NCBI GenBank assembly: GCA_040767155.1
Contig: JAXGPC010000005.1
Coordinates: 390,841 to 454,840 of the forward strand
Origin: Anaerolineae bacterium
GTDB lineage: Bacteria; Chloroflexota; Anaerolineae; B4-G1; SLSP01
DNA length: 64,000 nt
Direction: 5' to 3'
Shown one piece after another: positions 12,015-42,077 of the stretch (position 1 is its first letter; each line of letters begins with the position of its first letter). Position numbers and translations under genes: made by a program. The notes below the pieces were generated by a model. That model made no database searches. It saw nothing but the letters and a program-made list of their open reading frames with translations, and was not told the origin of the DNA.

Positions 12015-14123
12015 CTAACCGTTGCTATCGGTTTCTTGGATTTGGCTATCCAGCCACACCACCTCGGCGCGCGGGGCGCCGTGCAGGGCCGTGATGCGCG
12101 CGGGACGACCGCGCAGGAACACTTTCTCCAGCACGATGCCGTCCCAGCCCTCGGGCATCACGATCGGCCCTGAAAACCAGTCGTCGAGGTTCTCCTTCCA
12201 GAAGTTGATGCGCGTCAGCCCCAGCATCAGCCCGGCCATCAGGCTACCGCGCCCGGTGATGAAGACGGTGGTGACGGCGTCCGGCACGCGCTGGTAGTGG
12301 CCGGCCGTAATCGCGCCCTCGGCGCTCATGCGATAGGGTTCGGTGAAGAACGGCAGGTTGCCCCGGTCGAAGTAGGCCCGCGCGAGCGTGCGGTCGCCCA
12401 ATCGCGCGGGGATCACGCCCAGGAACCCCGAGAGCATCGGGAGCGCCAGGTAGTGTTCCAGGTCGTGCTCGATGAAGAAGCGGTAGGTCGCGGCGTCAAC
12501 CTCGGGGCTGTGGCTGTAGCCGTAGGGGAAGAAGGCCATCAGCGACTCGGGCGGCATCGAATCCCGGATCTCGCAGCCCTCGTACTGCTCGATGAACCCG
12601 AGTTCGGGGTGGACCGGGACGACGAGCGTATCGGCGATCTCCTGCCAGAGGGGGTTGACCGGGTAGCCGAGCTTCGCCGCAAACCGGTTGGCGTGGTGTA
12701 ACACAGCCCGGCAGATGATGTTGGTGAACGAGTCGTTGTTCACGTTGTCGGCGCTCTCGTCGATGCCGGTGACGAAGAGCATCTCGTAGCCCCGTGCGGT
12801 CTTCTCGACGCGGCTCACGATCCACTCGGCCACGCCCTTGACCACCGGCCATGCCTGCTCGCGCAGGAAGACTTTGTCGCCCGTCACCTGGCAGTAGGCG
12901 ACGAAGGCCAACGCGACGTCCATATTCACGTGCTGCTCGCCGGCACCCCCGGCGCCGCCCGCCGAGACGCGGGTGACCTCGTCGCCGGTCGCGCCGCTCT
13001 GCCACGGGAATTGGATGCCGTGATAGCCGTTGATCATGGCGTTGTGGCGCGCGGCCTCCAATCGCCGGAAGCGGTAGTCCAGGATCGCCTTCGCGGCGGC
13101 AGGATCGGTAAGCAGGGGCAGCATCGCCATGAAGCTCTCGGTGTCCCAGAAGACGTGGCCCTTGTAGTTGTCGCGCTGGCTAAGGCCGAAGGGGGCCACG
13201 CTCTGCGGCGAGGAGGGATGGATCGACGAATAAAGGTAGAAGAATGACGCATCGACCACGTCCTGCCACGCTTCGTCGGCGCCCAAGATCCTGACCCGGC
13301 TCTCCCAGAGCGTCGCCCACGCCTTGTGGTTCTCCTCGCGCAGCCTGGCAAAGCCCTTCCATTGGGCCAGCTTGATCATGCGCACCGCCTGCCAGTGCGG
13401 CTCCGAATGTAAGGCGCCGGGCACGGTGCTGACCATCAGCCTGTACCGGTAGGTCGATCCGGGCACTGCCCCGACGCTAGTGGCCTTGGTCAGCCGCTCC
13501 TGCTCGTAGCCCCAGTCGTCGTTGACCTCGCGGAAGGCCCCATCGCCCTCGCACGCCAGGTACGTGGCGAGGCCGGCTGATGTCGAGCCGTCGCGGCTCT
13601 CGAGCCAGAGCACGCCGTCGCAGTCGGCATTGGGCACCAGCGTCATCCGGGTGCGAATCGGTAGCCGGGTGGGGTCGACGAGCGTGGAGACGCTGAGGTC
13701 GCAGGGCTGCTGGACCGTCAGCTCGATCTCCTGGACCACGACGGAAGGGCTCGTGCGGCTCGCGTAGATCAGGTGTGTTCCCCGGAGTGTCTGGCCCCGG
13801 GCGTTGGTGAACGCGAACGTCGTCGTGAGCTCGCCACACGCGAAGTCATAGGTCTGCTCGATCAGGCGGTAGCCGCCGGGGTTCTTTGCGAGCGAGCTGC
13901 CGTCCATGGCCAGGTTCCACGCCACGGCGGGCACGGGGGCGAGCGCCTCCACGCCGAATCGCTCGTGGCTCCCGGTAAAGCCAGCGAGGAGCGCTGTCTG
14001 GTCCGTGAGGGGGCAGGTGCCGACGCGCAGGCCCACAAACCCGTTCGCAACGTAGGCGGGCTGGTGGCTTTGGGGTGCTTCGCGGATCGTGTGCTTTTTC
14101 ATCGAGGATACGCTGAACCACAC
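12015..14123 (-). CDS. glycoside hydrolase family 65 protein (trehalose/maltose/kojibiose phosphorylase or hydrolase-like)
   Basis: GHVFWDTESFMAMLPLL...NGYHGIQFPWQSGATGDEVT matches the conserved GH65 catalytic-core block. Likely start at internal MKKHTIRE or at GTG. Confidence 0.7.
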   Translation of the reverse strand: MWFSVSSMKKHTIREAPQSHQPAYVANGFVGLRVGTCPLTDQTALLAGFTGSHERFGVEALAPVPAVAWNLAMDGSSLAKNPGGYRLIEQTYDFACGELTTTFAFTNARGQTLRGTHLIYASRTSPSVVVQEIELTVQQPCDLSVSTLVDPTRLPIRTRMTLVPNADCDGVLWLESRDGSTSAGLATYLACEGDGAFREVNDDWGYEQERLTKATSVGAVPGSTYRYRLMVSTVPGALHSEPHWQAVRMIKLAQWKGFARLREENHKAWATLWESRVRILGADEAWQDVVDASFFYLYSSIHPSSPQSVAPFGLSQRDNYKGHVFWDTESFMAMLPLLTDPAAAKAILDYRFRRLEAARHNAMINGYHGIQFPWQSGATGDEVTRVSAGGAGGAGEQHVNMDVALAFVAYCQVTGDKVFLREQAWPVVKGVAEWIVSRVEKTARGYEMLFVTGIDESADNVNNDSFTNIICRAVLHHANRFAAKLGYPVNPLWQEIADTLVVPVHPELGFIEQYEGCEIRDSMPPESLMAFFPYGYSHSPEVDAATYRFFIEHDLEHYLALPMLSGFLGVIPARLGDRTLARAYFDRGNLPFFTEPYRMSAEGAITAGHYQRVPDAVTTVFITGRGSLMAGLMLGLTRINFWKENLDDWFSGPIVMPEGWDGIVLEKVFLRGRPARITALHGAPRAEVVWLDSQIQETDSNG

Positions 14124-14190
14124 CTACCGCGTCAGGGATGCAAGGAAGAACCTGGCCGCGTATCTACAGGCAGCTGGCGAACACTGCTAT

Positions 14191-14437
14191 TAGCCTGCGT
14201 CTACTGATCCTTGGGCTGCGCTCCTCTGGGCCGCTTGAAGACCATGATCACGTCGCGGGTTCTGCCGTAGCCTTCGTGGGTGACGAAGGAGGTCGCCAGC
14301 TCCCATCCGTCGCGGCCCAGGCCGTTCATCATGGCGTCGAGTTGTGCCTCATCGACAACGCCACCCCAGAAGCCCTGAGGGCGCAGTTTGACCGTCTTGT
14401 ATTCCCATTCAACGTCGTACCATCCTCCCTGTTGAAT
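14191..14437 (-). CDS. DUF4177 domain protein (small, no canonical start codon found)
   Basis: Minus-frame translation WEYKTVKLRPQGFWGGVVDEAQLDAMMNGLGRDGWELATSFV...VIMVFKRP matches DUF4177. GGAGGA lies upstream, but the first in-frame ATG/GTG/TTG is missing (GTT or ATT instead). Not in the ORF track. Confidence 0.4.
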
Positions 14438-14475: not shown

Positions 14476-14880
14476 CTACGCGCGAACGCGGGGTCGGAAC
14501 TTGTAGCCGTAGACGATCGTGCCTTCTTCGCCGTGCGTGCGCAGGCGCCGCGTGACCATCTCTACCGGCATCCCGATCTGCACATCCTTGGGCGCGACAT
14601 CGGTGAGTTGGGCGGTGACGACCGGGCCCTCTTCGAGCTTGACGAGCGCCACGGTGTAGGGGGTATAGGGCTCGAAGCCCTCTGGCGCGTTGTAGACAGT
14701 ACTGAACGTGTAGACTTCGCCGCGTCCGCTCAGGGGCGCTGGTGTCTTTGCCGGCTTGCCGCACTCAGGGCAGATATCGCGTGGAGGGAAGATGGCCGCC
14801 CCGCAATGCCCACACCGCTCGCCCTCGAGCCGATATCGCTGTCCCCTTAACCGCCAATCGTTCGCGACCTTTGCTTCCAT
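14476..14880 (-). CDS. Zn-ribbon/OB-fold protein (DUF35), partner subunit of the archaeal-type thiolase/HMG-CoA synthase complex
   Basis: CGHCGAAIFPPRDICPECG zinc-ribbon motif followed by an OB fold. Sits in a block with thiolase, HMGS and HMGR genes. Confidence 0.8.
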   Translation of the reverse strand: MEAKVANDWRLRGQRYRLEGERCGHCGAAIFPPRDICPECGKPAKTPAPLSGRGEVYTFSTVYNAPEGFEPYTPYTVALVKLEEGPVVTAQLTDVAPKDVQIGMPVEMVTRRLRTHGEEGTIVYGYKFRPRVRA

Positions 14881-15096
14881 TTGTGTGCACTCCTTTTCCC
14901 GGGAGATCTTCTCCCCGTCGGATGTCCTATCATTTCACCAACGTCCAAGCTTTCCGATCCGTGGGTGCGTCTCACTCTGGGGCCACACTGCGGGTGTAGA
15001 TCACGTCTCCAGAGCGGGCAAGATGCCCGCGCTCCGAGAGCGATGTCACCCCCAGAATGAAACGCGCCTTACTTTGTTGCTGTCTCGCCTACTTGC

Positions 15097-16254
15097 CTAT
15101 CCCATGCCTTCGAGTATGTGCGTGATGATCGTGGCGCCGCTCCCGCCGATGTTCTGGGTCATGCCCAGCCGCGCGTTAGGAAGCTGGTTGGCCCCCGCCA
15201 ATCCACGCAACTGCAATACCGCTTCTACCACCTGATAGATACCAGTCGCCCCCACGGGATGGCCCCGTGCCTTCAAGCCGCCCATCGTCGCGATGGGCAC
15301 GCGCCCCTGCAGCGTGATCTCACCATCCAATGCCAGTTGAACGCCCTTGCCCCGTTCGGCAAACCCGGATGCTTCCAGGCTCAGTGCTGCCATAATCGTG
15401 AAGGCATCGTGCAACTCAAAGAAATCCAGGTCCTCAGGCTTGACATTCGCGAGCTGATACGCCTTGTGGGCAGAGGTCCGCGCAGCCTCCAACGCCAGCG
15501 GATCTTTGCGACTATGGACCGCCAGCGGCGCCATTCCTACAGCTGAGGCCCGGATCTTCACCGGTGCTGGGCTCAGCGCACGCGCATACTCTGCCGGCGC
15601 GAGCACAACCGCCGCTGCGCCGTCACAGACCGGCGAGGCGTCGAGCAATCCCACGGGCGTGGCAATGATCGGTGCGCGCGCATAAGCCTCTGCCGAGATC
15701 CGTGACTGGAACATCGCGTTGGGGTTGTTCACGCCGTTGGCATGTGCCGTTACCGCGAAGTTGGCGAAGTCCTCATGCTTCCACCCATACTCATACATAT
15801 AGCGCTGCATCAGCAGCGCGTTGAGGGCCACAAACGAGATCCCCTGGCCCGCCTCATATTCCGCATCTGCCGCGGCAGCTAACGCGGCCGTTGTTTCACG
15901 TCCGCCCGTATCCGTCATCTTCTCCACGCCGAGGGCGAGCACCAGGTTGGCCATCCCGCTGGCAACGGCCATTGTGCCAACCCGCAACGCCGCTGCGCCC
16001 GAGGCGCATGCGGCTTCTACCTTGAAGGCCTCGGTGTTCCCCAGCCCCATAAAGTCCACGGCGAGTGCGCCCAGTTGCGATTGCCCGGCAATCTCGCCGG
16101 AGAGCATGTTGCCCACGTACACTGCATCGACGGTCTCGATTGCGGCGTCTTGAAGCGCGCTCAGGCCCGCTTCGAGCATCAAATGGCGTATACCCGTCGT
16201 CCAGTGTTCGTCTACCGGGGTCTGCCCTATACCGATAATGGCTACGTCACGCAT
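15097..16254 (-). CDS. thiolase (acetyl-CoA C-acetyltransferase, archaeal type)
   Basis: VAIIGIGQTP N-terminus, thiolase-fold catalytic Cys region (AACASGAAAL) and C-terminal GHPVGATG motif. Confidence 0.85.
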   Translation of the reverse strand: MRDVAIIGIGQTPVDEHWTTGIRHLMLEAGLSALQDAAIETVDAVYVGNMLSGEIAGQSQLGALAVDFMGLGNTEAFKVEAACASGAAALRVGTMAVASGMANLVLALGVEKMTDTGGRETTAALAAAADAEYEAGQGISFVALNALLMQRYMYEYGWKHEDFANFAVTAHANGVNNPNAMFQSRISAEAYARAPIIATPVGLLDASPVCDGAAAVVLAPAEYARALSPAPVKIRASAVGMAPLAVHSRKDPLALEAARTSAHKAYQLANVKPEDLDFFELHDAFTIMAALSLEASGFAERGKGVQLALDGEITLQGRVPIATMGGLKARGHPVGATGIYQVVEAVLQLRGLAGANQLPNARLGMTQNIGGSGATIITHILEGMG

Positions 16255-16261
16255 CAGTCCT

Positions 16262-16335
16262 CGAATCGGCGAATCAGCGAATAAGCGAGAAAGCGAATCA
16301 GCGAAAAAAGCATCGCGGAATCAGCGAACTGGGAA
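16262..16335. repeat. tandem array of an about 8-bp GCGARWAR unit (gcgaatca/gcgaataa/gcgagaaa...)
   Basis: Seen directly in the HMGS-thiolase intergenic spacer. Same repeat family as the arrays at 58035-58093 and 58590-58662. Confidence 0.6.
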
Positions 16336-16367
16336 TCCTGGAGCTTCCTCTCCCCAATCATCAATCA

Positions 16368-17426
16368 CTAGTCCCGGAGTTTGCCGCGATAGCGAGTGTA
16401 GAGCGCATAGTCGATCTCGACGCGGCGCTTGATGTAGTCAGCGGTGTGCGGCACTTTGTCCTGGCAGGCTGTGATGCGCTCGGTCACTTCCCAGGCAAAG
16501 GCGTCCGAGCCCGCGCCGGACCCGAAGCTCACCAGCAGGATCCGGTCGCCCGGCTTGGCGATATCCAGCACCGCCGACAAACCTGTCAGTGATGCTCCTG
16601 CATACGTATTGCCAATGACGCCGCTCAAGAGGCCTGTCTCGATCTGCACATTGGTGAATCCCAGCCGCTCTGCGGCGCGCCCCGGGAACTTCACATTGGG
16701 CTGGTGGAAGATGGCGTAGGTGAAATCCTGCGCCGTCAGCGCCAACTCCTCCATCAGCGCGCGCCCAGCGGACTCGACATGGTGGAAATAGGCCGGCTCG
16801 CCCGTGAAGCGTCCCCCGTGGCTGGGGTAGTGCTGATACGCGCGCCGCCAGAAATCCGGGGTGTCGGTCACGTAGGAGAGCGATCCCATGCACACGGCAA
16901 CGGCGCGCTCCGCCGGCCCGATGATGAACGCGCTCCCACCGCTTGCAGCGGTGTACTCCAGCTCGTCGCCCGGGCGTCCCTGTGCCGTATCGGCGCCAAT
17001 CGCCAGCGCATAATCCCCCATTCCTGATCCCACGAGCCCCATCGCCGCCTGCAGTGCTTCGGTCCCGGCCTTGCAGGCGAACTCGAAGTCGCCTGCCAGT
17101 AGATACGGCGTTGCGCCGAGCGCCTCGGCGACGAGCGTCGCTGACGGCTTCACCGCATAGGGATGCGACTCGCTGCCCACCCAGATCGCACGCAGCGCCT
17201 CAGGCAGGATCTCGGCCCGCGCGATGGCGTTCCGTGCTGCCTCGATGGCGATCGTAATCGTATCCTCGTCCAGTCCCGCAACCGCCTTCTCGCGAACGGG
17301 GCCGCGACCGCCCCCGGTCCAGACCCTGGCAATCTCCGAGCCAGGCAGGCGATACATAGGCACATAGGCACCATACCCCACGATCCCCACTGCCCGTTGC
17401 GGTTTCATCAACCGAGCTTCAGTCAC
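16368..17426 (-). CDS. hydroxymethylglutaryl-CoA synthase (archaeal type)
   Basis: [11 protein letters not shown]-terminus and a short length (352 aa) typical of archaeal-type HMGS that partners with thiolase/DUF35. Confidence 0.85.
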
Positions 17427-17438
17427 ACAGTCCTCCTC

Positions 17439-18764
17439 TTATGAGGCGCTGTCTTTGTTCAACAACGACCGAGCGACATCGATGCGGATGGCACGACTCT
17501 CGACCATCGCTTGCGCGACGCGGTCGATATCGGCTCCCACCGCGCCTGCGGCCATCGCCACCTGGCGGGCGTGGAGTGCCATGTGTCCCTTCTGGATGCC
17601 CTCGGTGGCCAGTGCCCGCAGTGCGGCCAGGTTCTGCGCCAGTCCAACGCTTGCGACGACCATAGCCAGCTCACCGGCGTTCTGCACACCGAGGATCTTC
17701 AACGCGACCCGAGCCGTCGGGTGCACGCGTGTGGCCCCTCCAACCGTTCCGAGCGCCAGTGGCAGCTCCAGATGGCCCAGAAGACTGCCCTGTCGATCAC
17801 GGCGCCAGGTGCTCAGGCTCGTGTACCGCCCGCCGCGGGCGGCATAGGCATGGGCCCCTGCTTCCACTGCACGCCAGTCGTTACCGGTCGCCAACACGAC
17901 GGCATCTACGCCGTTCATAACGCCCTTGTTGTGGGTCGCCGCCCGATAGGGATCGGCAGCGGCGAAGGCCCAGGCTAACTCGATCCCATCGGCCACCTGC
18001 GCTCCGGTGAACGTCTCGAACGCCAGCGCATCCTCGGGGATTGTGACCCGTGCCCGCGCCAGGCGGTGGTCCGCCAGATTGCTCAGGATCCGCAGATACG
18101 GTGTCCCACCGGTCAGCGCGGCCAGCTCCGGTGCCAGTCGCTCACATGCCGTGTTCACGACGTTCGCGCCCATCGCATCGCGCACGTCGATCAACAGGTG
18201 TACGACCAGCATCGACCCTCTGGCAGTATCGAGGATGCGGACCTGGATATCCTGCGCGCCGCCTCCCAGGTCCACGAGCACGGGGTCCAGCGCATTGACT
18301 ATCGCCATCAGGCGCGCTCTGTCAGCGAGAATCGCATCGATCGCGGCATGGGGGTCGGGCAGATCGACCAACTGAACCTGGCCAATCATTACGGGAGCAT
18401 CCGCCTCAGCTATAAACCCACCACCACGGCGAGCCAGCCTGGCGGCGAAGGATGCGCCCGCGACGACCGAGGGTTCCTCGATCACCATTGGCACCAACAC
18501 GTCGCGGCCGTTCACGACGAAGTTCGTGGCAATACCCAGGGGCAGTGCATAGCGGCCCACGGCGTTCTCGACCATGGCATTCGCCCGGTCGAGGCTCAAC
18601 CCCATTCCTTCGCTGAGGAGGTCGGCTTCCTCGTCCGACAGGACAACCTGCTCCCGGATCAAGGTGATACGTTCCTGAACCGTGAGTGTATAGAATCCGC
18701 TCAGTCGCGACGTCGGTTTTGATGGCATAAAGGGCGTTACGTGGACTCCTAGCGAGAAAATCAT
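17439..18764 (-). CDS. mvaA: hydroxymethylglutaryl-CoA reductase (class II-like)
   Basis: DAMGAN(V)VNT and EEPSVVAG motifs. Coupled to the HMGS gene downstream (12-nt gap). Confidence 0.9.
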   Translation of the reverse strand: MIFSLGVHVTPFMPSKPTSRLSGFYTLTVQERITLIREQVVLSDEEADLLSEGMGLSLDRANAMVENAVGRYALPLGIATNFVVNGRDVLVPMVIEEPSVVAGASFAARLARRGGGFIAEADAPVMIGQVQLVDLPDPHAAIDAILADRARLMAIVNALDPVLVDLGGGAQDIQVRILDTARGSMLVVHLLIDVRDAMGANVVNTACERLAPELAALTGGTPYLRILSNLADHRLARARVTIPEDALAFETFTGAQVADGIELAWAFAAADPYRAATHNKGVMNGVDAVVLATGNDWRAVEAGAHAYAARGGRYTSLSTWRRDRQGSLLGHLELPLALGTVGGATRVHPTARVALKILGVQNAGELAMVVASVGLAQNLAALRALATEGIQKGHMALHARQVAMAAGAVGADIDRVAQAMVESRAIRIDVARSLLNKDSAS

Positions 18765-18958
18765 AGCATAAGCCTCCTCTCAAAAGCTATCAGGTCTCGA
18801 TTTCTAACCTTTATCAGTCCTAGATGCGAAGCCTCAGACGTACGAAAGTTCCTCTGCTCCACATGATCTTGCTTTATTCGCCGTTTCGGGATATTCTCGG
18901 CAGAAGTGCAGCAGATCGGACTATTGCCGACAGAAACCTGCAGGGAGCGGCGCCTACT

Positions 18959-20896: not shown

Positions 20897-21745
20897 ATGG
20901 CGCTTAAAGGTAAGCTTGAGGACTTTGGGATCACCCAACTGCTAAATCTCATCAACCTGGCCCGCAAGACCGGCACGCTCTATCTGGACCAGCCGGACCA
21001 GGAAGCTTATCTATGCTTTCGTGAGGGAAGCCTGATCTATGCGACCATGGCGGGTGTCGATGACTACCTACCGGGGATCTTGCAGCGCGCGGGTGTTTTC
21101 ACCGCCGACCACGTCAAGATGATCCGAGACAATATGCCTGGCAAGTCAGCTCAGGATATCGCCCGGGTTCTGATCACCAGCGGACGCCTCAAGCAACAAG
21201 TTGTCCTTGCCCATGTACGCCAGCATGTCGTCGACATTGTGTATCAGGTGTTTTCCTGGAACCATGGGACGTTCCGGTTCGAACCTTCTGAGCTGCCGGT
21301 CCAGGGCAAGATCACTACGTCCATCGCGCTCGAGAACCTCATCATCGAGGGCAATCGGCGGCTCAAGGAATGGGAGTTGCTGTGCGACGAGCTCCCTGAT
21401 CTCGATATCACGCTGAAATTCGCCGAGCGACCTTCGACCCCACTGCGCGACATCAATCTGAGCGTTGAAGAGTGGCGCGTCATCTCCTTCATCAACCCAC
21501 GCAACTCTATCCGCCAGATCGCTCATTACAACAACATGGATGAGTTGCAGATCCGAAAGATCGTCTATGGGCTGTTGCAGGCGGGGCTCGTCGAGATGAT
21601 CCGCCCTGCACAACCCGCTGCTCCCCGGGCTGCCAAGCCCGATGCGCCTGCCGCCGAGAAACAACCCAGCGCATCGCAGATGAAACGTCCCGCGGTGAAG
21701 CGCAGCATCATCCAGAGGCTGATCCGGCGCATCCGGGAGCTGTGA
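20897..21745 (+). CDS. PATAN domain (DUF4388) protein
   Basis: N-terminal LEDFGITQLLNLINLARKTGTLYL is the DUF4388/PATAN signature. First gene of a nine-gene coupled operon. Confidence 0.7.
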   Translation: MALKGKLEDFGITQLLNLINLARKTGTLYLDQPDQEAYLCFREGSLIYATMAGVDDYLPGILQRAGVFTADHVKMIRDNMPGKSAQDIARVLITSGRLKQQVVLAHVRQHVVDIVYQVFSWNHGTFRFEPSELPVQGKITTSIALENLIIEGNRRLKEWELLCDELPDLDITLKFAERPSTPLRDINLSVEEWRVISFINPRNSIRQIAHYNNMDELQIRKIVYGLLQAGLVEMIRPAQPAAPRAAKPDAPAAEKQPSASQMKRPAVKRSIIQRLIRRIREL

Positions 21746-21748
21746 TGC

Positions 21749-22294
21749 ATGCAGACTCTGAAAATCGTTGTCACCGGTCCCTTCTCCTCGGGCAAGACAG
21801 AGTTCATTCAGGCTGTCAGCGAAATCGACGTCGTCTCTACCGAACGCAAGATCACGCGTAAGTCGGAGCGCATCAAAGATCAGACGACCGTTGCGATGGA
21901 CTTCGGTCGCATCACCATCGATGAGGAGTTGATCCTCTACCTGTTCGGAACCCCCGGACAACGCCGGTTCGACTTCATGTGGGAGATCCTGTCGGAGGGC
22001 ATGTTGGGGTTTGTGGTGATGGTGGATAGCACGCGACCGGAGACTTTTCGCGAGGCGCGGCGTATTCTGGACACGTTTCGCAGCTATTCCCCCGTGCCCT
22101 ATCTCGTGGCGGCCAACAAACAGGACCTGGACGATGCGTGGCCTGCCGATGATCTGCGTATCGTGTTGCGTGTCGACCCCGACGTCAAGGTGGTCCCGTG
22201 CGTGGCGAAGGACAAGGAATCCGTCAAAAGTGTCCTTCTCGAGCTCCTGTATGCGATCCTGGAGCTGGTTGAGGTTGAGGCAGAGGAAGTCTAG
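21749..22294 (+). CDS. small Ras-like GTPase of the conservon CvnD / MglA-like family (ATP/GTP-binding protein)
   Basis: KIVVTGPFSSGKTEF P-loop, TTVAMDFGRI switch region, LYLFGTPGQRRFDFMW (DxxG) and ANKQD (NKxD). Strongly resembles Streptomyces CvnD. The stop/start context is TGAtgcATG, so the two genes are coupled. Confidence 0.75.
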   Translation: MQTLKIVVTGPFSSGKTEFIQAVSEIDVVSTERKITRKSERIKDQTTVAMDFGRITIDEELILYLFGTPGQRRFDFMWEILSEGMLGFVVMVDSTRPETFREARRILDTFRSYSPVPYLVAANKQDLDDAWPADDLRIVLRVDPDVKVVPCVAKDKESVKSVLLELLYAILELVEVEAEEV

Positions 22295-22297
22295 ACT

Positions 22298-23086
22298 ATG
22301 AGCTCCATCGTCACCGAGAGGGGCATCGTTCACTATGAGACCTTTGGCCGGGGCCAGCCGGTTGTCCTGCTGCATTGCTGGCTCGGCTCGTGGAACTACT
22401 GGATGTCGACCATGGAGTTCCTGGCCGGGCACAAGTTCAAGACCTATGCCCTGGATTTCTGGGGTTTTGGCGAGTCGGCTAAACAGGGCGCCTTCTCCGT
22501 CGATGAGTACGTGGAGATGGTCGATCAATTCATGGAACGGATGGGGCTGGCTACAGCGCACGTGATGGGGCACTCGATGGGGGGAACTGTGTCGCTATCC
22601 CTGGCTCTCGCGCATCCTCAGCGCGTTTCGAAGGTAGCCGTCGTTGGTTCGCCCATCGTGGGTTCGGGGCTGAGCTTGCTGCTCAAGGCTGCCGGGTATC
22701 GTTCAGTTGCCAGGTTGCTCTACGGCATCCCCGGTGTGCTCCCGGCGTTGTTGAAGGTACTTTCTGTCACCTATGCCCGGGATGCGCGCAGGCTCTGGGG
22801 GTTATTGCGCGACGACATCTCACGCACGACGGTCGATTCCTTCTCCCGCAGCATCGGTGACCTGCGGCGCACCGATCTGCGGCCCCGGCTGCGCGAATGC
22901 CGTGTGCCCGCAATGGGCATCTATGGACGTAAGGACAACATCGTCAACCCAAAGCAAGGCGAGCTGTTGCGTGCCGGGATCGCAACCCATACTCTACACA
23001 CCTTCGAGGGCTCGGGTCATTTCCCGATGCTCGATGAGACCCAACGCTTTCACAACGCGATCCTGAGTTTTCTGGCGGAGACGTGA
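22298..23086 (+). CDS. alpha/beta hydrolase (intact catalytic triad)
   Basis: GHSMGG nucleophile elbow and a C-terminal GHFPM histidine. Confidence 0.8.
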   Translation: MSSIVTERGIVHYETFGRGQPVVLLHCWLGSWNYWMSTMEFLAGHKFKTYALDFWGFGESAKQGAFSVDEYVEMVDQFMERMGLATAHVMGHSMGGTVSLSLALAHPQRVSKVAVVGSPIVGSGLSLLLKAAGYRSVARLLYGIPGVLPALLKVLSVTYARDARRLWGLLRDDISRTTVDSFSRSIGDLRRTDLRPRLRECRVPAMGIYGRKDNIVNPKQGELLRAGIATHTLHTFEGSGHFPMLDETQRFHNAILSFLAET

Positions 23087-23730
23087 GCGTTGATCCTGCT
23101 TATCGCAACGCCTGTTTTCCGAACAGGATCTCGCGCATCCTGCTTCTGGCGCTTCAGGACGTCCTGGGGGCGAATGGCAGCAGCGCTGTTCTGACGACGG
23201 CCAAGCTTCCACAATATGTAGCTACGCTGCCCCCCGCCGATTTCGAGCCAGGACTGACTTTCTCCGAGATTGGGCGCCTCTTCGAGGCCCTCGAGAGCAT
23301 TTACGGTGTACAGGCTGGTGACCGGCTGGCCAAGCAGGCTGGTCGGGAGAGCTTCAAGTACTGGATCGAAGGTTTGGGCGGGCTTGTCAGTTTCGCCGAT
23401 GTGCTATTGTGCTTTCTCCCGCTATCCTTACGGGCCAGGATCGGGGTGGAGGTAGTGGCCGAGATCATCAACCGCTATACCGATGAACGTCTGGTTCTTG
23501 GCGAAAGCCACGACCAGTATCTTGTGAAAGTCGAGACCTGTGGACTCTGTGCGGGGCGCAGAACCGATATCCCGGCGTGCGGCTATATGCAGGGCACCCT
23601 GGATGAGTTGTTGTTTTGGGTGAGCCGGGGGCGCCGGTTCACCATCCGGGAGACGGCCTGCATCGCTCTCGGAGATCCGGCCTGCGTCTTTGCTATCGAC
23701 AAGGTTCCGCCATCGTCTGCGGGGGCATAA
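23083..23730 (+). CDS. V4R (4-vinyl reductase-like) domain protein
   Basis: C-terminal ETCGLCAGRRTD.PACGYMQGTLDE block with paired cysteines, typical of V4R/BchJ-like small-molecule-binding domains. Overlaps the previous gene by 4 nt. Confidence 0.55.
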   Translation: MSVDPAYRNACFPNRISRILLLALQDVLGANGSSAVLTTAKLPQYVATLPPADFEPGLTFSEIGRLFEALESIYGVQAGDRLAKQAGRESFKYWIEGLGGLVSFADVLLCFLPLSLRARIGVEVVAEIINRYTDERLVLGESHDQYLVKVETCGLCAGRRTDIPACGYMQGTLDELLFWVSRGRRFTIRETACIALGDPACVFAIDKVPPSSAGA

Positions 23731-23733
23731 GCG

Positions 23734-24987
23734 ATGCGTAAGGTCATCCTGCGAGACAGGCGCAAGATTCCTCCCTTCAACGAGCCCGCGCGCGAGTTGA
23801 GTGTGCTGACCAAGCCCTTGTGGCTGCACCAGCGTGACGTCCTGGCCCGCTATACGACCGAGGAACACGAGGTCGACTCTCTGGAGCAGATCAAAGCAGG
23901 TCCGGTGGAGATGTTGGTCCACCGCGACAACCTTTACTTCGATGCCGAGTTCATCGACGAGTTCGTGCGACGTGCACGTGCTTTGGGCAAAGCATGTCGG
24001 GTCGCTTTCTCGCTCGACGATCGTGCCATCAATGGCCATGCGATCTATCTCCAGGAAGGTATCCAACGGGAAGGTCAGCACTACGTTGCCGATCTCTGGT
24101 ATTTCCCTCACGGCGTCGAACCGGATGCCAGCCCGCTGGTCATCGATACCGAACCTCGCGAGGTGGGGTTCTACCACGTGCCCACCCATATGGCGAATCC
24201 TTATGGTGATCTCGTGTACGACTTGCCCACCAAGCCCTTTCTCTCCATCGAACACTGGGTGCACGTTCTCCACGCCAATGTCGATTTCGGCATCTTCGCG
24301 ATTGGCGCACGCTTTGAACGTGATGCGGAGAGGAACGTGGGGCTGAACCTGAGACTCCTCTGGCGTGGCATGGTCGAGCGAAAACAGGTCCTGACCACTT
24401 CGGCGTTGGTGAAGATTGGCAAGAACTGTAGCATCGATCCGACTGCTACGATCCAGGGTCCGGCATTCATCGGCAACAATGTCTTCATCGGTGCGGGGGC
24501 GGTTGTCGGCAATTGCACCATCGGCGATAATGTAACCATCGATCAGGGGTGCCAGTTGATGCTGAGCGTGGTGGGCAATGGCTCGTTCCTGCCGTTCCGT
24601 GCGGCGCTCTATCGCTCGGTGTTGATGGAGAACTGTATCCTGGCACAGAACTCTTGCCTGCAGATGACCGTAGTCGGGCGAGGATCGTTCATAGGTGCCG
24701 GGAACACGTTCACCGACTTCAACCTGGTGGATCGACCGGTGCGATCGTATTTCAAGGGGACTCTGCAGGATACGGGGATGACGGCATTGGGCGGAGCCGT
24801 AGGGCACAACGTGCGCATCGGGTCAGGGATGGTCATCTTCCCGGCCCGGATGATCGACTCCGACGTCATCCTCTTTGCAACGCCGGATCGGCGTGTGGTT
24901 CGTAAGAATGTCCTCTGGGAGGACAGTGACCACCTGGGGCTTGAGAACGGGGAGAGCCTACATCCCCGACTCTATCCCCGGGACTGA
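23734..24987 (+). CDS. left-handed beta-helix (hexapeptide-repeat) protein with a 220-aa N-terminal domain of unclear function
   Basis: The C-terminal half contains repeated [LIV]G hexapeptides (IGKNCSIDPTATIQGPAFIGNNVFIGAGAVVGNCTIGDNVTIDQ). The N-terminus begins KVIL like sugar-nucleotidyltransferases but lacks the GGxGTR loop. Confidence 0.6.
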   Translation: MRKVILRDRRKIPPFNEPARELSVLTKPLWLHQRDVLARYTTEEHEVDSLEQIKAGPVEMLVHRDNLYFDAEFIDEFVRRARALGKACRVAFSLDDRAINGHAIYLQEGIQREGQHYVADLWYFPHGVEPDASPLVIDTEPREVGFYHVPTHMANPYGDLVYDLPTKPFLSIEHWVHVLHANVDFGIFAIGARFERDAERNVGLNLRLLWRGMVERKQVLTTSALVKIGKNCSIDPTATIQGPAFIGNNVFIGAGAVVGNCTIGDNVTIDQGCQLMLSVVGNGSFLPFRAALYRSVLMENCILAQNSCLQMTVVGRGSFIGAGNTFTDFNLVDRPVRSYFKGTLQDTGMTALGGAVGHNVRIGSGMVIFPARMIDSDVILFATPDRRVVRKNVLWEDSDHLGLENGESLHPRLYPRD

Positions 24988-25021
24988 TGGGGCTCTATTG
25001 TTATAAGGCAGGAGGTAAGCG

Positions 25022-25912
25022 ATGAGCGCTGGTCGCATCCTGGTGGTCGAAGACGATGCTGATATCTCCAATATGCTGCAGCTCTATTTCAAGGCGCAGG
25101 GGTATGAGGTTTCTGTAGCCCTGCGCGGTCTGGACGCTCTGGATGCGACGCGGCAGAAGATGCCCAATGTGATCGTGCTGGACATTATGCTCCCCGACAT
25201 TGATGGCTATGAGGTCTGCCGGCGATTGCGCACGAATCTGCGAACCAGCCACATCCCGATTATCTTTCTGACACAGAAGGATGAGCGGAGTGACCGGATT
25301 CGGGGTCTCGAACTTGGTGCGGACGATTACATTACCAAGCCCTTCGATGTTGAGGAGTTGCGCCTGCGCGTTCGCAACACTATTACAAGCGCTGAGGTTG
25401 CCAGCTTGACCAGCCCATCCACGGGGTTGGCGAGTGGCAAGCTGATCGAGCAGCAACTGCGCGCGCTGCTCCGGGCCGAGAAGTGGGGGATCCTCTACAT
25501 TGGTATCAGGGGGCTGGAGGCATTCAATCAGGCCTACGGTTTCGTTGCGGGGCAGGATGTTCTGCGCTTCACGGGTATGATCCTGAATGCCGCGGTCGAC
25601 GAGGTGGGCACTGACAATGATTTCACCGGTCACATTGGCAGCGACGACTTCATCGTGGTCACCGGCGCCGACAAGGTGGACCACTTGCGCGATGTTATCC
25701 GCCAGAGGTTCGACAAGGATGTGGGCACGCACTATGACTTTATGACCCGGATGCAGGGCTATCTGGTGGTGAAGGATGACGCAGGCAACGACATTCAGAC
25801 GCCACTGATGCGATTGGCAATCGGAGCGCTCACGTCCGATGACGGTCCGTTCACCGATATCCGAGAGATCACGGAGGCTGCAGCCGAAGCCAGGCGTCGC
25901 GATAGCATGTAG
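25022..25912 (+). CDS. response regulator, REC domain plus degenerate GGDEF domain (GSDDF)
   Basis: REC domain with the phospho-acceptor Asp in VLDIMLPD. The GGDEF-like domain carries GSDDF instead of GG[DE]EF and has a degenerate upstream metal-binding block. Confidence 0.8.
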   Translation: MSAGRILVVEDDADISNMLQLYFKAQGYEVSVALRGLDALDATRQKMPNVIVLDIMLPDIDGYEVCRRLRTNLRTSHIPIIFLTQKDERSDRIRGLELGADDYITKPFDVEELRLRVRNTITSAEVASLTSPSTGLASGKLIEQQLRALLRAEKWGILYIGIRGLEAFNQAYGFVAGQDVLRFTGMILNAAVDEVGTDNDFTGHIGSDDFIVVTGADKVDHLRDVIRQRFDKDVGTHYDFMTRMQGYLVVKDDAGNDIQTPLMRLAIGALTSDDGPFTDIREITEAAAEARRRDSM

Positions 25913-25967
25913 CGCCTGGGCGCCTGTTCCCAGATCGTCCCTCAGAAGCTGGAAGGGAAGTTGTCGT

Positions 25968-26345
25968 ATGCTCAAAATCCTGATTGCTGAAGATGAACGC
26001 GACATCCGCGAACTGATCTCATTCACCCTTCAGTTCGCTGGGTACGAGGTTGTCTCGGTTCAGAATGGGGCTGAGGCGGTCGAGCAGGCGTTGGCGACCC
26101 AACCCGATCTCATCCTGCTCGACGTGCGTATGCCCAAGATGACCGGCTATCAGGCGTGTGAGGCGCTCAAAGCGTCGCCCGAGACGAGGGATATCCCGGT
26201 CCTTTTTCTCTCTGCCAAGGGCCAGGAGTCCGAGATCCGTCAGGGGTTCGAGGCTGGGGCCATCGACTACATTCTGAAGCCCTTCTCGCCTGATGAACTC
26301 ACTGCACAGGTCAAACGCGCTCTGGCCCCTTCGGACCAGACATAG
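25968..26345 (+). CDS. single-domain response regulator receiver (CheY-like)
   Basis: ILIAEDERDIREL...LLDVRMPKMTGY...DYILKPF. Start reassigned to ATG 25968, preceded by GGAAGGGAAG. Confidence 0.8.
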   Translation: MLKILIAEDERDIRELISFTLQFAGYEVVSVQNGAEAVEQALATQPDLILLDVRMPKMTGYQACEALKASPETRDIPVLFLSAKGQESEIRQGFEAGAIDYILKPFSPDELTAQVKRALAPSDQT

Positions 26346-26363
26346 GTATCGCTGTGGAGCCCC

Positions 26364-27152
26364 ATGAGCGCTCTGGTTGTCGACAATAGCCTGGTACATT
26401 ACGAGGTGCTCGGTCGTGGTCGACCGCTGCTATTCCTTCATGGGTGGTTGGGCTCCTGGCGCTATTGGGTGCCCACGATGATCGAGCTCTCGTCCTCACA
26501 CCGGGCCTATGCCCTGGACTTCTGGGGCTTTGGGGATTCGGACAGAGTTCCCTCGAGATATGACCTGCCCGGGTACACGGATCAGGTCGCTGCCTTTCTC
26601 GATCAACTGGGGATTGGTCGATTGCCCATCATAGGCCACGGGCTCGGCAGCGCCGTGGGACTCACCCTTGCACGGGACCACCCTGAGTGCGTCGAACAGG
26701 TCATGGCTATCAGCTTACCTCTGACCGGCGCTCACATTGGGCGGGCCTTGAGCACCTTCGGCGGTGGGGAGAATGCTGCCCGGGCGGTGCTTGGGCGCCG
26801 GATCAAGTCCTATGACGAGGTTGACATCGAGGCGGCGAAGACGGAGGGCGCGGCGGTGGTGCAGAGCGTACGTTCCGTTGCTGATCAGGACATCGGTGCG
26901 CTGCTTCGTGATAGTGCTGTCCCGGTTCTTCTCGTTGCAGGTGCAGACGACCCGATCGTCCAACCGCCGGATGATGCACTGGCGGCAAACCTGAGTGCGC
27001 ACGTTCACTCGATCGTCTTCGATGGCGTGCAGCACTACCCGATGCTTGAGCAATCGAGCAAGTTCTGCCGGCTGTTGCGCGATTTTCTCACCTATCAGGA
27101 CGACTGGGATAGAATGCAGCTTAAGGATGAATGGAAGCGCCGCATGCGCTAA
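26364..27152 (+). CDS. alpha/beta hydrolase paralog lacking the nucleophile serine (pseudo-hydrolase)
   Basis: About 45% identical to the 22298-23086 product over the first 130 aa (LVHYEVLGRGRPLLFLHGWLGSWRYW...). The nucleophile elbow reads GHGLG instead of GHSMG; the histidine is retained. Confidence 0.75.
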   Translation: MSALVVDNSLVHYEVLGRGRPLLFLHGWLGSWRYWVPTMIELSSSHRAYALDFWGFGDSDRVPSRYDLPGYTDQVAAFLDQLGIGRLPIIGHGLGSAVGLTLARDHPECVEQVMAISLPLTGAHIGRALSTFGGGENAARAVLGRRIKSYDEVDIEAAKTEGAAVVQSVRSVADQDIGALLRDSAVPVLLVAGADDPIVQPPDDALAANLSAHVHSIVFDGVQHYPMLEQSSKFCRLLRDFLTYQDDWDRMQLKDEWKRRMR

Positions 27153-27158
27153 GGCGAT

Positions 27159-27923
27159 ATGAAGAAAAGCACAGAATCGGATCCCTGGGCTATGGGACTG
27201 ACCATGCGCGCACTGGTGTTGGTCGCGTTTGTGGCGGCCTTTGCCGTTCCTGCCGGACTTGTGCCCATCGTCGCTGTTGCGACCGATGCCGAGGGTGTGT
27301 CAGAGGAGTCCGAGGGGTTGGTGGTCATTCCACTCAGTACTGCCACGCCTGTGGCGACATCAGTACCTGTGTCTACCCCGACGCCCACGGTCCCGCGCGT
27401 GGGGATCATTGCCGGTCATACAGGCAGCGACAGTGGGGCGGTCTGCCCTGATGGCCTTCAGGAAGTCACCATCAATGACAATGTTGCGCGCCAGGTTGTG
27501 GCGATTCTGTCGGCTCGCGGGTGGTCGGTCATGCAGTTGGAGGAGTTTGATGCGCGCCTGACGGGGTATACGGCGGATGCTCTGGTGTCGATCCATGCAG
27601 ATTCCTGTACCCTTGTGGATCGGTCAGGCTATAAGGTGGCTCGGGCCGAATCGAGCTCGATTCCCGATGCAGAGGACCGGTTGACTGCTTGCCTGAGCCA
27701 GCGTTACGGTGAGCATACGGGCATCCCGTTTGATCCCCACACGATCACGTACGATATGCGGCGATACCATGCCCTATACGAGATCAACCCCAATACGCCC
27801 GCAGCGATCATTGAGACCGGCTTTATGTCGGGTGATCGGGAGCTGCTTACCGAGCGCTCCGACGTCGTCGCACGTGGCATTGCCGATGGCCTGATCTGTT
27901 TCATCGAGGGCGAATCTCCCTGA
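27159..27923 (+). CDS. N-acetylmuramoyl-L-alanine amidase (Amidase_3 family), secreted or membrane-anchored
   Basis: N-terminal TM/signal region, then IIAGHTGSDSGA...NDNVARQVVAIL...LVSIHADS. Separated by 6 nt from the previous gene. Confidence 0.7.
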   Translation: MKKSTESDPWAMGLTMRALVLVAFVAAFAVPAGLVPIVAVATDAEGVSEESEGLVVIPLSTATPVATSVPVSTPTPTVPRVGIIAGHTGSDSGAVCPDGLQEVTINDNVARQVVAILSARGWSVMQLEEFDARLTGYTADALVSIHADSCTLVDRSGYKVARAESSSIPDAEDRLTACLSQRYGEHTGIPFDPHTITYDMRRYHALYEINPNTPAAIIETGFMSGDRELLTERSDVVARGIADGLICFIEGESP

Positions 27924-27951
27924 GTGTCTTTTTGCGTCTGCCGCAGGCGGT

Positions 27952-27980
27952 TTGATTTGCCGTACTGTCTGGGGTAGAAT
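27952..27980 (+). promoter_or_regulatory. candidate promoter TTGATT-17-TAGAAT upstream of ssb
   Basis: Canonical spacing; followed by AAAGGAG and the ssb ATG 57 nt downstream. Confidence 0.35.
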
Positions 27981-36953: not shown

Positions 36954-38006
36954 CTACGGGTTCGCCACCTCCACGGGCAACCTGAAACTTACCCGCAGCC
37001 CCTGCCCGGGTGCGCTGGCAAATCGGATGGTCCCATTGAGCATCTCGATGCGCTCGCGCAGTGTGGGGAGGTTGAGCCGCACAGCATCGGGCGACGTCAG
37101 GGTCTCGTCGATCTCGAACCCAACACCATTGTCCTCCATCGTCATACGCACCTCGTCGTCCTCGATGTTCAGATGGGTGACAATATTGGTGGCCTGATCC
37201 TGTTCGCGTGCTATGTGAATGAGCGCCTGGATGACACGGAAAATCGTGATTTCCTTGTGAGGTGCCAACCGGCGATCCTTTCCGGTAACCTTCAGCGTCA
37301 ATCCTGTGAATCCCTCGTTGGTGATACCTTCCACGTACCGCCGCATCGTCGGGACCAACCCCAGATCGTCCAGCATCATCGGGCGCAGGTCGAAGATGAA
37401 GACCTTTACCGTCTTGAAGGCGTTGACCACGCTCTTCTTCAGCTCGCCAAGCTCGTGTCGGGCGCGCTCGGGGTCACGATCGAACAATCGCTCGCAGATC
37501 TCGGCCTGCAAGACCAGGTTTGTCAGTGACTGCGCCGGCCCGTCGTGCATCTGCCGCGATAGGCGTAGCCGTTCCTGTTCCTGCGCCTCGATGATGCTGA
37601 TGACCATCGCCTGTGTATTGTCTTTGCCATCATCCTGGGAGCCGGGCTGGTCCATGGCGACCTCGGGGGGTGCAAAACCGAGGACCTTGTTGTAGAGCTC
37701 TGCGATGCGGGTCAGGTTGCGCTGGTCGCTCTGCAGTTTTTCCAGCTGTCCTCTCATCGTGAACAGCCGCTGCTGATTCTCGATCAGCGTGTCATACGTC
37801 TTGCGGATGTCGTCGCGGGGCACGGTGTCGAAAGTCGATTCCATCTGCCGCACCCGGGCCACGGCGCGGGCGTTAGTCTGCACGAAGCGGTCCACCTCGG
37901 TCGCCGTTTGTTGAATCAGCAAGTCGATCTCTCTCAATTCACGCTGCACCTGCTCGGATCCAAGCCGGCAGAAGTCCGTGAACTGATCCCAACTGTTCTC
38001 TACCAT
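36954..38006 (-). CDS. sensor histidine kinase, HisKA_3 type (cytoplasmic, coiled-coil N-terminus)
   Basis: H-box EQERLRLSRQMHDGPAQSL (HisKA_3) and a HATPase_c domain (EDNGVGF...GQGL). No TM segment. Start moved to MVENSWDQ with an upstream AGAGGG. Confidence 0.8.
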   Translation of the reverse strand: MVENSWDQFTDFCRLGSEQVQRELREIDLLIQQTATEVDRFVQTNARAVARVRQMESTFDTVPRDDIRKTYDTLIENQQRLFTMRGQLEKLQSDQRNLTRIAELYNKVLGFAPPEVAMDQPGSQDDGKDNTQAMVISIIEAQEQERLRLSRQMHDGPAQSLTNLVLQAEICERLFDRDPERARHELGELKKSVVNAFKTVKVFIFDLRPMMLDDLGLVPTMRRYVEGITNEGFTGLTLKVTGKDRRLAPHKEITIFRVIQALIHIAREQDQATNIVTHLNIEDDEVRMTMEDNGVGFEIDETLTSPDAVRLNLPTLRERIEMLNGTIRFASAPGQGLRVSFRLPVEVANP

Positions 38007-38046
38007 AGAACCCTCTCTTGATGCTTTCGATACACGGTGTGTTGGC

Positions 38047-38763
38047 TCACAGTTTCTGCAGGCGCACCCAGCCATGGCGGAGGGCGTGAATGGCGGCCTG
38101 CGTTCGATCTGCCCGGTTCAACTTTGCCAGAATCGAGGTGACGTGATTCTTGACCGTCTGTTGGCTGATTCCGAGCGTGATGGCGATCTCCTTATTGCTC
38201 AGCCCTTCGATGATCTGCTGTAGGATCTCCATCTCGCGCTCGGTCAGCGGCGAGAATGTTGTGTCCTCGGGGCTGATCCCGTACCGGCGATATAACTCAA
38301 ACAGCCACTGACCGACCTCTTCCTGGGTCATGCATTTATTGGCAATCAGGGTGTATCCCTGGGCTACCAATCGCACAGTCTCCACGAGTTGTGCGGGTGC
38401 GACATCCTTGGCGAAATACGCCGAGGCCCCGATGCGGATGGCGCGGTAGATCTGTTCTTCGTCATCATAGGCAGTCAGGATGACAACGGCGACATCCGGA
38501 TGATCATTCTTGATCTGTTGCGTCACCTGCAGGCCGTTGATCGTAGGGAGATTGACGTCCATCAAGACGACATCGGGACGTGTTTCCGCGATCATCTCGA
38601 GCGCCTCTTCTCCATCGCTGCTCTCTCCCACGACGGTAATGCCCGGCTGCGAGTTCAACACATCGCGGATTCCCTGGCGAAAGAAGAAATGATCGTCTAC
38701 GATGGCGACCTTGACGATTTCGCCGGGGTCTGACGTCTCGCTTTCCATACAGTTCCTGACCAC
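38047..38763 (-). CDS. NarL/LuxR-family response regulator
   Basis: REC domain (VAIVDDH...VLMDVNLP) plus a C-terminal LuxR HTH (LTEREMEILQQIIEGLSNKEIAITLGISQQTVKNH). Confidence 0.85.
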   Translation of the reverse strand: MVRNCMESETSDPGEIVKVAIVDDHFFFRQGIRDVLNSQPGITVVGESSDGEEALEMIAETRPDVVLMDVNLPTINGLQVTQQIKNDHPDVAVVILTAYDDEEQIYRAIRIGASAYFAKDVAPAQLVETVRLVAQGYTLIANKCMTQEEVGQWLFELYRRYGISPEDTTFSPLTEREMEILQQIIEGLSNKEIAITLGISQQTVKNHVTSILAKLNRADRTQAAIHALRHGWVRLQKL

Positions 38764-42034: not shown

Positions 42035-42077
42035 GTAATTGGAAGACCAATGCCGGCAGTGTTTGAAGGAGGATATT

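Follow-up and report, generated by a model that had tools for sequence, protein, structure and literature searches.

In a 64-kb stretch of DNA from an uncultured Anaerolineae (Chloroflexota) bacterium (hereafter the window, meaning the whole stretch that was analysed), nine co-directional open reading frames (ORFs) on the + strand form an operon, numbered g1 to g9, around a PATAN-domain protein (g1) and a Ras-like small GTPase of the MglA family (g2). We lean, by a little over even chances, towards reading this operon as an Anaerolineae-specific rewiring of an ancient switch made of Roadblock, PATAN and MglA-family GTPase proteins, connected with a two-component relay. What is understood of bacterial Ras-like GTPases comes almost wholly from MglA/MglB and, more thinly, from the Streptomyces conservon, and in both systems a Roadblock protein controls the switch. 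In the class Anaerolineae the same GTPase subfamily has kept its PATAN partner, dropped Roadblock and gained a V4R protein, a hydrolase that appears active from its sequence, a left-handed beta-helix (LbH) protein and a GAF-kinase phosphorelay. The original prediction, made from the sequence alone, had described a signalling locus around a PATAN and MglA/CvnD-family GTPase pair, and this description was supported.

The operon occupies positions 20897–27923, as originally proposed, and the predicted spacing of -4 to +55 nt was verified, with gaps from g1 to g9 of 3, 3, -4, 3, 34, 55, 18 and 6 nt in order and a g1/g2 junction that reads TGAtgcATG. The gene order is identical in three other, independent assemblies of the same species and is therefore not an assembly artefact. 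Pfam profile searches, which had been suggested as a check, upheld every domain call. Related loci were then collected by a genome-wide scan with a 10-sequence alignment (80 loci), three more (L084–L086) being added by exact look-up, and the ORFs of each locus were classified with jackhmmer profiles of every operon protein and a Roadblock hidden Markov model (HMM). The ortholog set consisted of 30 Anaerolineae loci, 20 of which have at least 5 kb of downstream sequence.

The PATAN gene lies directly 5' of the GTPase gene in 30/30 ortholog loci, and a V4R gene follows within two genes of the GTPase in ~22 of them. A full series of hydrolase, V4R, LbH, in some cases a further gene (X, described below), receiver fused to degenerate GGDEF, and sensor is present in 13 of the 20 loci with enough flank and lacking in the other seven (L009, L011, L016, L018, L019, L027 and L030). 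Three of these are minimal PATAN–GTPase–V4R loci (L009 and L011, checked against Pfam, and L019, classified by jackhmmer only), and L010, with a flank of 4.5 kb, has only g1–g2. Orthologs of g7 and g8 were found in L004, L020 and L085 alone, where g7 sits after a kinase gene, and those of g9 in L085 and the assemblies of the same species alone. Conservation of the gene neighbourhood was thus borne out for g1–g6 plus a kinase, but the nine genes do not form one unit, as g7–g9 are confined to the closest relatives.

The Roadblock HMM found no match in the 64-kb window, and none of the nine operon proteins had a Robl_LC7 match in Pfam, in agreement with the predicted absence of this partner. Among the 30 ortholog loci, Roadblock is encoded in only two, L012 (2829–3209) and L030 (10645–11028), in both directly after the GTPase gene and in the usual place of the hydrolase gene, so that L030 reads PATAN–GTPase–Roadblock–V4R; these two loci may represent intermediates between the Roadblock-containing and Roadblock-free arrangements. 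Adjacent PATAN–GTPase pairs were also found in 18 loci from Actinomycetota, Aquificales, Thermaceae, Caldisericum and cyanobacteria, 14 of which encode a Roadblock protein, usually in the order Roadblock–PATAN–GTPase. Among the loci compared, g3, g4, g5 and X occur only in the Anaerolineae clade. The absence of Roadblock at the locus is a genuine clade-wide feature, and something else has presumably taken over its role.

The GTPase itself has MglA as its closest solved structure (3t12, 37 bits) and carries the motifs GPFSSGKT, TTVAMDFG (within DQTTVAMDFG), GTPGQ (within LFGTPGQRRF), NKQD and CVAKD. It shares 70–88% identity with its Anaerolineae orthologs and 44–49% with CvnD-type GTPases from actinobacterial loci, mostly of Streptomyces. 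Members of MglA groups 2–5 are marked by GTPGQ at G3 and by a Thr that replaces the intrinsic arginine finger beside the G2 threonine; group 5 has a canonical [NT]KxD G4 and a poorly conserved G5, and group 2, to which CvnD belongs, has NxFD and DAR at these positions (Wuichet & Sogaard-Andersen 2014). GTPGQ is present in the window, in each of the 30 Anaerolineae orthologs and in practically all related loci that were retrieved, and g2 has the TT pair at G2. The window protein and all orthologs share NKQD at G4 and CVAxD at G5, and g2 has no switch-I insertion, whereas the CvnD-type GTPases retrieved from actinobacterial conservon-like loci have a G4 of NCFEG/NxFD type, mostly CDAR at G5, and a switch-I insertion. 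Placed by its motifs, g2 is a group-5-like MglA-family GTPase and not a true CvnD, and the conservon-type label originally given to it does not hold in the strict sense.

The partner protein g1 aligns with the PATAN (DUF4388) profile PF14332 over the full length of the profile (positions 1–122 of 122; 96.4 bits against a cutoff of 25). Its AlphaFold2 model (mean predicted local distance difference test score, pLDDT, 77) comprises a PATAN core, a winged helix at ~170–235, a disordered segment at 238–270 and a helix at 270–281, with a helical insertion (58–119) between the PATAN strands at 45–51 and 125–130. An alpha-helical insertion inside PATAN is a trait given by Makarova et al. 2006; it is shorter or absent in the Aquificales, Caldisericum and Thermaceae homologs. 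The overall architecture, including a terminal xSLIxRLIxRIRxL-like helix, is found in other phyla too, in PATAN proteins linked to a GTPase. In fold comparisons g1 also gave weak matches to NPRL2/NPRL3. The possibility that PATAN is a hidden Roadblock domain was discarded after a negative profile–profile comparison (probability 0.2%). PATAN domains have been described as protein-interaction modules that target the motor of type IV pili (bioRxiv 10.1101/2021.06.11.447907), and PATAN genes as neighbours of MglA/MglB genes (PMC4316618). The predicted partnership of PATAN with MglA is real at the level of genomic linkage, but it is not new, having been pointed out already in 2006 (Makarova et al.) and in 2014 (Wuichet & Sogaard-Andersen).

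The V4R assignment of g4 holds in both the family and the fold comparison: its Pfam score is barely above the cutoff (31.8 versus 31 bits), and its model is TRAPPC3/H-NOX/PoxR-like, with an archaeal TRAPPC3 as the best match. Four cysteines (Cys156, 166, 193 and 201) are invariant in 42 homologs and are candidates for a four-Cys Zn site of the kind known in PoxR and Thor-TRAPPC3. Proteins of the V4R/TRAPPC3/H-NOX-type fold bind hydrophobic ligands and Zn according to an Asgard study, which did not see operon links between V4R and small GTPase genes in MK-D1 (PMC10933270).

Both receivers of the operon keep their phospho-acceptor region, which is conserved in g6 (VLDIMLPD) and likewise intact in g7. 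The GGDEF motif of g6 is non-canonical in 14/14 sequences, that of the window included (GSDDF in the window; GGDNF, GGDDF, GGANY and SSETF in orthologs), and the weak Pfam match covers profile positions 7–109 of 161. To judge from these motifs, g6 lacks the GG[DE]EF signature of diguanylate cyclases, and its degeneration is family-wide. None of the nine operon proteins matches HisKA/HATPase in Pfam, so that in the window no cognate kinase is encoded together with the receivers. The predicted lack of a histidine kinase was therefore confirmed for this operon, but it is a lineage-specific loss: in 13/13 complete relatives a large multi-GAF/PAS sensor gene starts within ~100 nt of the end of g6. 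A HisKA + HATPase_c core was confirmed in four of these (L004, L005, L020 and L085) and partially in two (L008 and L086), and in the other seven the sensor ORF extends past the retrieved DNA. A receiver domain within the sensor was recorded in L004, weakly in L085, and not in L020.

Comparison of the g6/g7 junction with L085 by blastn placed its two flanks at 14047–14230 and 18775–18892, ~4.5 kb apart, as against 55 nt between g6 and g7 (~75 nt between the aligned segments) in the window. The ~4.5 kb missing here encodes, in relatives, a multi-GAF/PAS hybrid histidine kinase and an extra receiver. As the kinase spans the deep divergence of the clade, the simplest reading of these alignments is a recent deletion in the window lineage. 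Relocation of the kinase within the window was considered and rejected, as the only candidates were receiver-domain matches and an unrelated NarL-type pair; this pair (a HisKA_3/HATPase_c kinase and a REC-GerE regulator at 36954–38763, - strand, ~9 kb away) contains the sole histidine kinase found in the window. As a separate observation, the cluster kinase of L085 (14279–18799, from a long-read metagenome-assembled genome) is split into three overlapping ORFs of 968, 338 and 220 residues, probably through assembly frameshift errors rather than a true division of the gene; comparable splits affect g3, g6 and g7 of L004/L084.

In the mechanism that we propose, the GTPase would act as the central on/off switch and the PATAN protein as its obligate partner, docking via the PATAN domain and/or the conserved C-terminal helix, with the winged helix coupling the switch to its target. 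The V4R protein would bind a hydrophobic small molecule made, trimmed or removed by the hydrolase and LbH enzymes, and in its ligand-binding capacity would take over the control of nucleotide state supplied elsewhere by Roadblock, in the manner of a GTPase-activating protein (GAP) or guanine-nucleotide exchange factor (GEF). Phosphorylation of the two receiver proteins would provide a second input, from a kinase that is cluster-encoded in relatives; in the window genome the receiver kinase may be encoded elsewhere, or there may be none. The non-cyclase GGDEF domain could serve for interaction or for the binding of nucleotides. The output, if other PATAN and MglA systems are a guide, would most likely be spatial or cell-envelope control (polarity, pili, septal wall) rather than metabolic.

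Several points weigh against this mechanism. The genome may encode a Roadblock protein beyond the window; V4R is missing from some ortholog loci (L016, L018 and L027); and the annotated genes around the cluster include none for pili or motility, about half of the window ORFs having been searched against Pfam. In addition, the invariant triad of g3, an invariant histidine of g5 and a frequent NAD(P)-binding neighbour fit real chemistry, and part of the cluster may be metabolic.

This last point bears on the expectation that several enzyme folds of the operon would be catalytically dead, which held for the GGDEF domain throughout the family and for g8 in the window and L085, but not for g3; g5 keeps an invariant His. 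The catalytic residues of g3 (GHSMGG, the D of GxxDxIV and the H of GHFxM) are invariant in 17 sequences (the window and 16 orthologs), and g3 is, by its motifs, a catalytically intact alpha/beta hydrolase. Its nearest PDB sequences are MhpC/CumD/BphD-type hydrolases (~73 bits), and a role as an RsbQ/KAI2-type hydrolase receptor was set aside because g3 comes closest to generic enzymes there, hydrolases of MhpC/BphD type and esterases. In its paralog g8 the nucleophile motif is GHGLG in the window and L085 and GHSLG in L020, the Asp and His being kept; the putative active site thus lacks a complete triad, and the loss of the nucleophile appears recent. Weak NCBIfam similarity links g4 to BchJ and both g3 and g8 to BchO.

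For g5, matches of a sequence profile to GlmU, LpxD and eIF2B-epsilon in the PDB cover residues 193–396 only, and the protein has a GlmU- or eIF2B-epsilon-like arrangement of head and beta-helix. Conservation among 12 orthologs runs over the full length and is strong in the N-terminal domain, and His358 of the beta-helix (in the motif GHN) is invariant. We take this motif to resemble that of the catalytic His in LpxA/LpxD. The N-terminus had no match in Pfam (E ≤ 10), NCBIfam or the PDB, whether searched as a single sequence or as a 12-sequence profile. The product of gene X, ~360 residues long, combines an NAD(P)-binding domain of Shikimate_DH type with 140 N-terminal residues without assignment. 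It is present in nine loci, namely eight of the 13 complete ones (L004, L005, L007, L014, L017, L021, L026 and L086), where it lies between the LbH and REC-GGDEF genes, and L027, where it follows the LbH gene; it is absent from the window, L008, L020, L022, L024 and L085. An apparent hydrolase–LbH fusion in Thermoflexus (L027) proved to be spurious: it stemmed from a long overlapping ORF in a different frame, and g3 is a separate ORF of 261 residues there.

These properties make a regulated small-molecule pathway the main rival, somewhat unlikely in our estimation. Here g3, g5 (as an LbH acyltransferase with a divergent nucleotidyltransferase-like head), X and g4 (as a V4R carrier, as proposed for BchJ) would make or remodel a lipid-like or aromatic compound, and the PATAN–GTPase pair and two-component proteins would regulate the pathway or simply be co-expressed with it. 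The invariant Ser-Asp-His triad of g3, the conserved His358 and N-terminal domain of g5, the recurrence of the Rossmann-type protein X, the weak likeness to BchJ and BchO, and the movement of g3, g4 and g5 as a block all agree with such a pathway. Nevertheless, no operon enzyme reaches any NCBIfam equivalog threshold, the N-terminus of g5 is without a family or PDB match even by profile, and X is dispensable. Furthermore, V4R accompanies the PATAN–GTPase pair alone, with no enzymes nearby, in the three minimal loci, and the g2/g3 and g3/g4 genes are tightly spaced or overlapping.

A more specific form of the rewired switch is one in which the V4R protein, with its TRAPPC3/Bet3 fold, replaced Roadblock as a direct, ligand-gated GEF- or GAP-like regulator of the MglA-family GTPase, on an NPRL2/3-like platform of PATAN and winged helix. 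We regard this as unlikely. If true, it would be the first prokaryotic case of a Bet3/V4R fold functionally tied to a small GTPase, and the pairing of a TRAPP-type fold with a Ras-like GTPase would either predate eukaryotes or have arisen twice.

It is also quite unlikely, in our view, that only g1–g2, perhaps with g4, form the functional module and that the remainder are unrelated co-directional neighbours in a compact genome. The restriction of g7–g9 to the closest relatives, the seven of 20 loci without the full block, the reduction of L010 to g1–g2 and the recent loss of the g8 nucleophile would all fit such a minimal module. Yet the order and orientation of g3, g4, g5, (X), g6 and sensor are kept in 13 loci whose GTPases are only 70–88% identical, and the gaps from g1 to g5 are just 3, 3, -4 and 3 nt.

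Beyond the orthologs, g2 relatives of ~50–60% identity (matches P0124–P0203 in a representative library) are fused to TIR-HEAT (sometimes with GNAT or REC in addition), to an nSTAND1 NTPase or to GAF, which suggests that this GTPase subfamily has been recruited elsewhere into conflict or surveillance-type proteins. PATAN–GTPase fusions, which would have served as Rosetta-stone evidence, did not emerge, the long g2 relatives being TIR-HEAT-, nSTAND1- and GAF-GTPase proteins and none a PATAN fusion. An anti-phage or conflict system built on the switch GTPase, to which these fused relatives point, is highly improbable for the operon, since PADLOC matched none of its proteins to a known defence system apart from generic receiver matches, no effector domain (nuclease, TIR or pore) is present, and the genomic context described below is stable.

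A second, different GTPase module exists in Anaerolineae at loci L041, L042 and L045. The paralogous GTPase there is ~50% identical and is encoded behind an OmpR-type response regulator, in a neighbourhood of FHA/zinc-ribbon, VWA-DnaJ and PP2C phosphatase genes, with a Roadblock gene ~3 kb away on the opposite strand.

The coordinates of the operon are collected in Table 1. The true ATG of g7 is at 25968. The amidase gene g9 is peripheral, its position being kept in L001–L003 and L085.

Table 1. Genes of the operon and the spacer between g6 and g7, with positions in the window
Feature	Coordinates	Strand	Evidence
g1, PATAN (DUF4388) protein with winged helix	20897..21745	+	Pfam PF14332, 96 bits
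g2, MglA/CvnD-family small GTPase, group-5-like	21749..22294	+	Pfam ATP_bind_1 69 bits, Ras 35 bits
g3, alpha/beta hydrolase, Ser-Asp-His triad intact by sequence	22298..23086	+	Pfam Abhydrolase_1 111 bits; GHSMG
g4, V4R/TRAPPC3/H-NOX-fold protein with four invariant Cys	23083..23730	+	Pfam V4R 31.8 bits, cutoff 31
g5, N-terminal domain (~1–215) and left-handed beta-helix	23734..24987	+	Pfam Hexapep; LbH_EIF2B 47.9 bits, below cutoff
g6, receiver fused to degenerate GGDEF (GSDDF)	25022..25912	+	Pfam REC 103 bits, GGDEF 28–30 bits
g6/g7 spacer of 55 nt, site of the kinase in relatives	25913..25967	.	blastn of the junction against L085
g7, stand-alone CheY-like receiver	25968..26345	+	Pfam REC 107 bits
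g8, alpha/beta-hydrolase paralog, nucleophile Ser replaced by Gly (GHGLG)	26364..27152	+	Pfam Abhydrolase_1 79 bits
g9, N-acetylmuramoyl-L-alanine amidase with hydrophobic N-terminal segment	27159..27923	+	Pfam Amidase_3 61 bits

Upstream, recN ends 99 nt before the operon, and beyond it lies a divergent mevalonate-pathway block (14476–18764, - strand) encoding a zf-ChsH2/OB-fold protein, a thiolase, an HMG-CoA synthase-like protein and an HMG-CoA reductase. This recN/mevalonate context is kept in the window's own species (L001–L003, with the mevalonate block listed for L001 and L002) and in three close relatives (L084, L085 and L086), with recN itself detected by homology in only L004 and L085 among the ortholog loci. 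The mevalonate block stays beside the cluster, which argues for a stable chromosomal neighbourhood, and this stable context, together with the 70–88% identity of the GTPases, suggests vertical inheritance and not a mobile island.

Downstream of g9, a terminator-like hairpin with a T-rich tract (27935–27949) is followed by a promoter-like site (27952–27980) between g9 and ssb. After ssb, the segment 28477–29544 (+) encodes a DUF3467 protein and a 226-residue protein without a Pfam match, a pair that recurs in the same-species assemblies. Three long antisense ORFs (21146–22573, 23428–24807 and 25001–26026, - strand; 341–475 residues) overlap operon genes and are in all likelihood shadow ORFs of the kind common in high-GC DNA, because the overlapped + strand genes hold the Pfam domains. 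No Rfam family and no tRNA were found in the 64-kb window. Further downstream, a 1346-residue TPR-repeat protein (42039–46079, +) is encoded in the stretch of strongest GC skew in the window (0.14–0.18); in Myxococcus, MglA has TPR proteins such as SgmX among its effectors, and nothing ties the TPR protein of the window to the operon.

What is new here is the Anaerolineae variant cluster itself, the neighbourhood of PATAN and MglA/MglB genes being already known. The view that this is not a described system stood up, as the literature search found no paper that analyses the cluster or links V4R to small-GTPase genes in bacteria, within an incomplete coverage of subscription journals. The cluster raises the question of what switches this GTPase on and off, and whether a small molecule is responsible, and it touches on two long-standing puzzles, what PATAN does and what stand-alone V4R proteins do. 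For the latter, which have been suggested to be ancestral to Bet3, a subunit of eukaryotic TRAPP, we know of no previous GTPase link. The kinase-less natural variant in the window offers a useful comparison with kinase-bearing relatives. Biochemistry should be feasible, as in the cultured Anaerolinea thermolimosa the first four annotated genes and their order match those of the window, as listed without comment in a published appendix (PMC8756737).

Among known systems, the likeness to TRAPP (TRAPPC3/Bet3; eukaryotic and Asgard) and to the GATOR1 subunits NPRL2/NPRL3 is at the level of folds only: g4 fits the sensor domains of bacterial H-NOX and PoxR/DmpR just as well, the matches of g1 are statistically weak, and no longin heterodimer was identified. 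In the cyanobacterial regulators PatA, PixG and PixE, PATAN also works with receiver domains, and in PatA-type regulators it steers a cellular machine, PilB1 (bioRxiv 10.1101/2021.06.11.447907). In contrast to these, PATAN and receiver domains are located on separate proteins here, and the PATAN protein carries a winged helix and has a GTPase as its partner.

With MglA/MglB of Myxococcus xanthus and Thermus thermophilus (group 1), the operon shares a single-domain MglA-family GTPase of the Ras superfamily, and receiver-domain and PATAN proteins are known to associate with MglA systems (PMC4316618, PMC11580455). It differs from them in having no Roadblock GAP in the operon or the window, in its G3 (GTPGQ here, TVPGQ there) and G2 (TT here, an intrinsic arginine finger there), and in its partners, which here are V4R, hydrolase and LbH proteins. 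With the Streptomyces conservon CvnA-D (group 2), it has in common the TTVAMDFG and GTPGQ motifs of the CvnD-type GTPases and, in relatives of the window, a sensor histidine kinase co-clustered with the GTPase. The conservon set, however, consists of a membrane HAMP histidine kinase with a C-terminal LPxR, a Roadblock protein (CvnB), a DUF742 protein (CvnC) and the GTPase, of which the operon has the GTPase only; DUF742 had no Pfam match among the nine operon proteins. The kinase of the relatives is a soluble multi-GAF/PAS hybrid with cognate receivers, unlike the membrane HAMP kinase CvnA, and g2 differs from CvnD in G4 and G5 (NKQD/CVAxD versus NxFD/DAR) and in the lack of a switch-I insertion.

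The direct evolutionary relative of the operon is the Roadblock–PATAN–GTPase triad of Actinomycetota, Aquificales, Thermaceae and cyanobacteria, with a group-5-type MglA, in which the same protein, composed of PATAN, winged helix and C-terminal helix, is encoded beside the same GTPase subfamily. The triads are without g3, g4 and g5, whereas the Anaerolineae clade has gained the V4R protein, the hydrolase, the LbH protein, the receiver with its degenerate GGDEF domain, and the GAF kinase.

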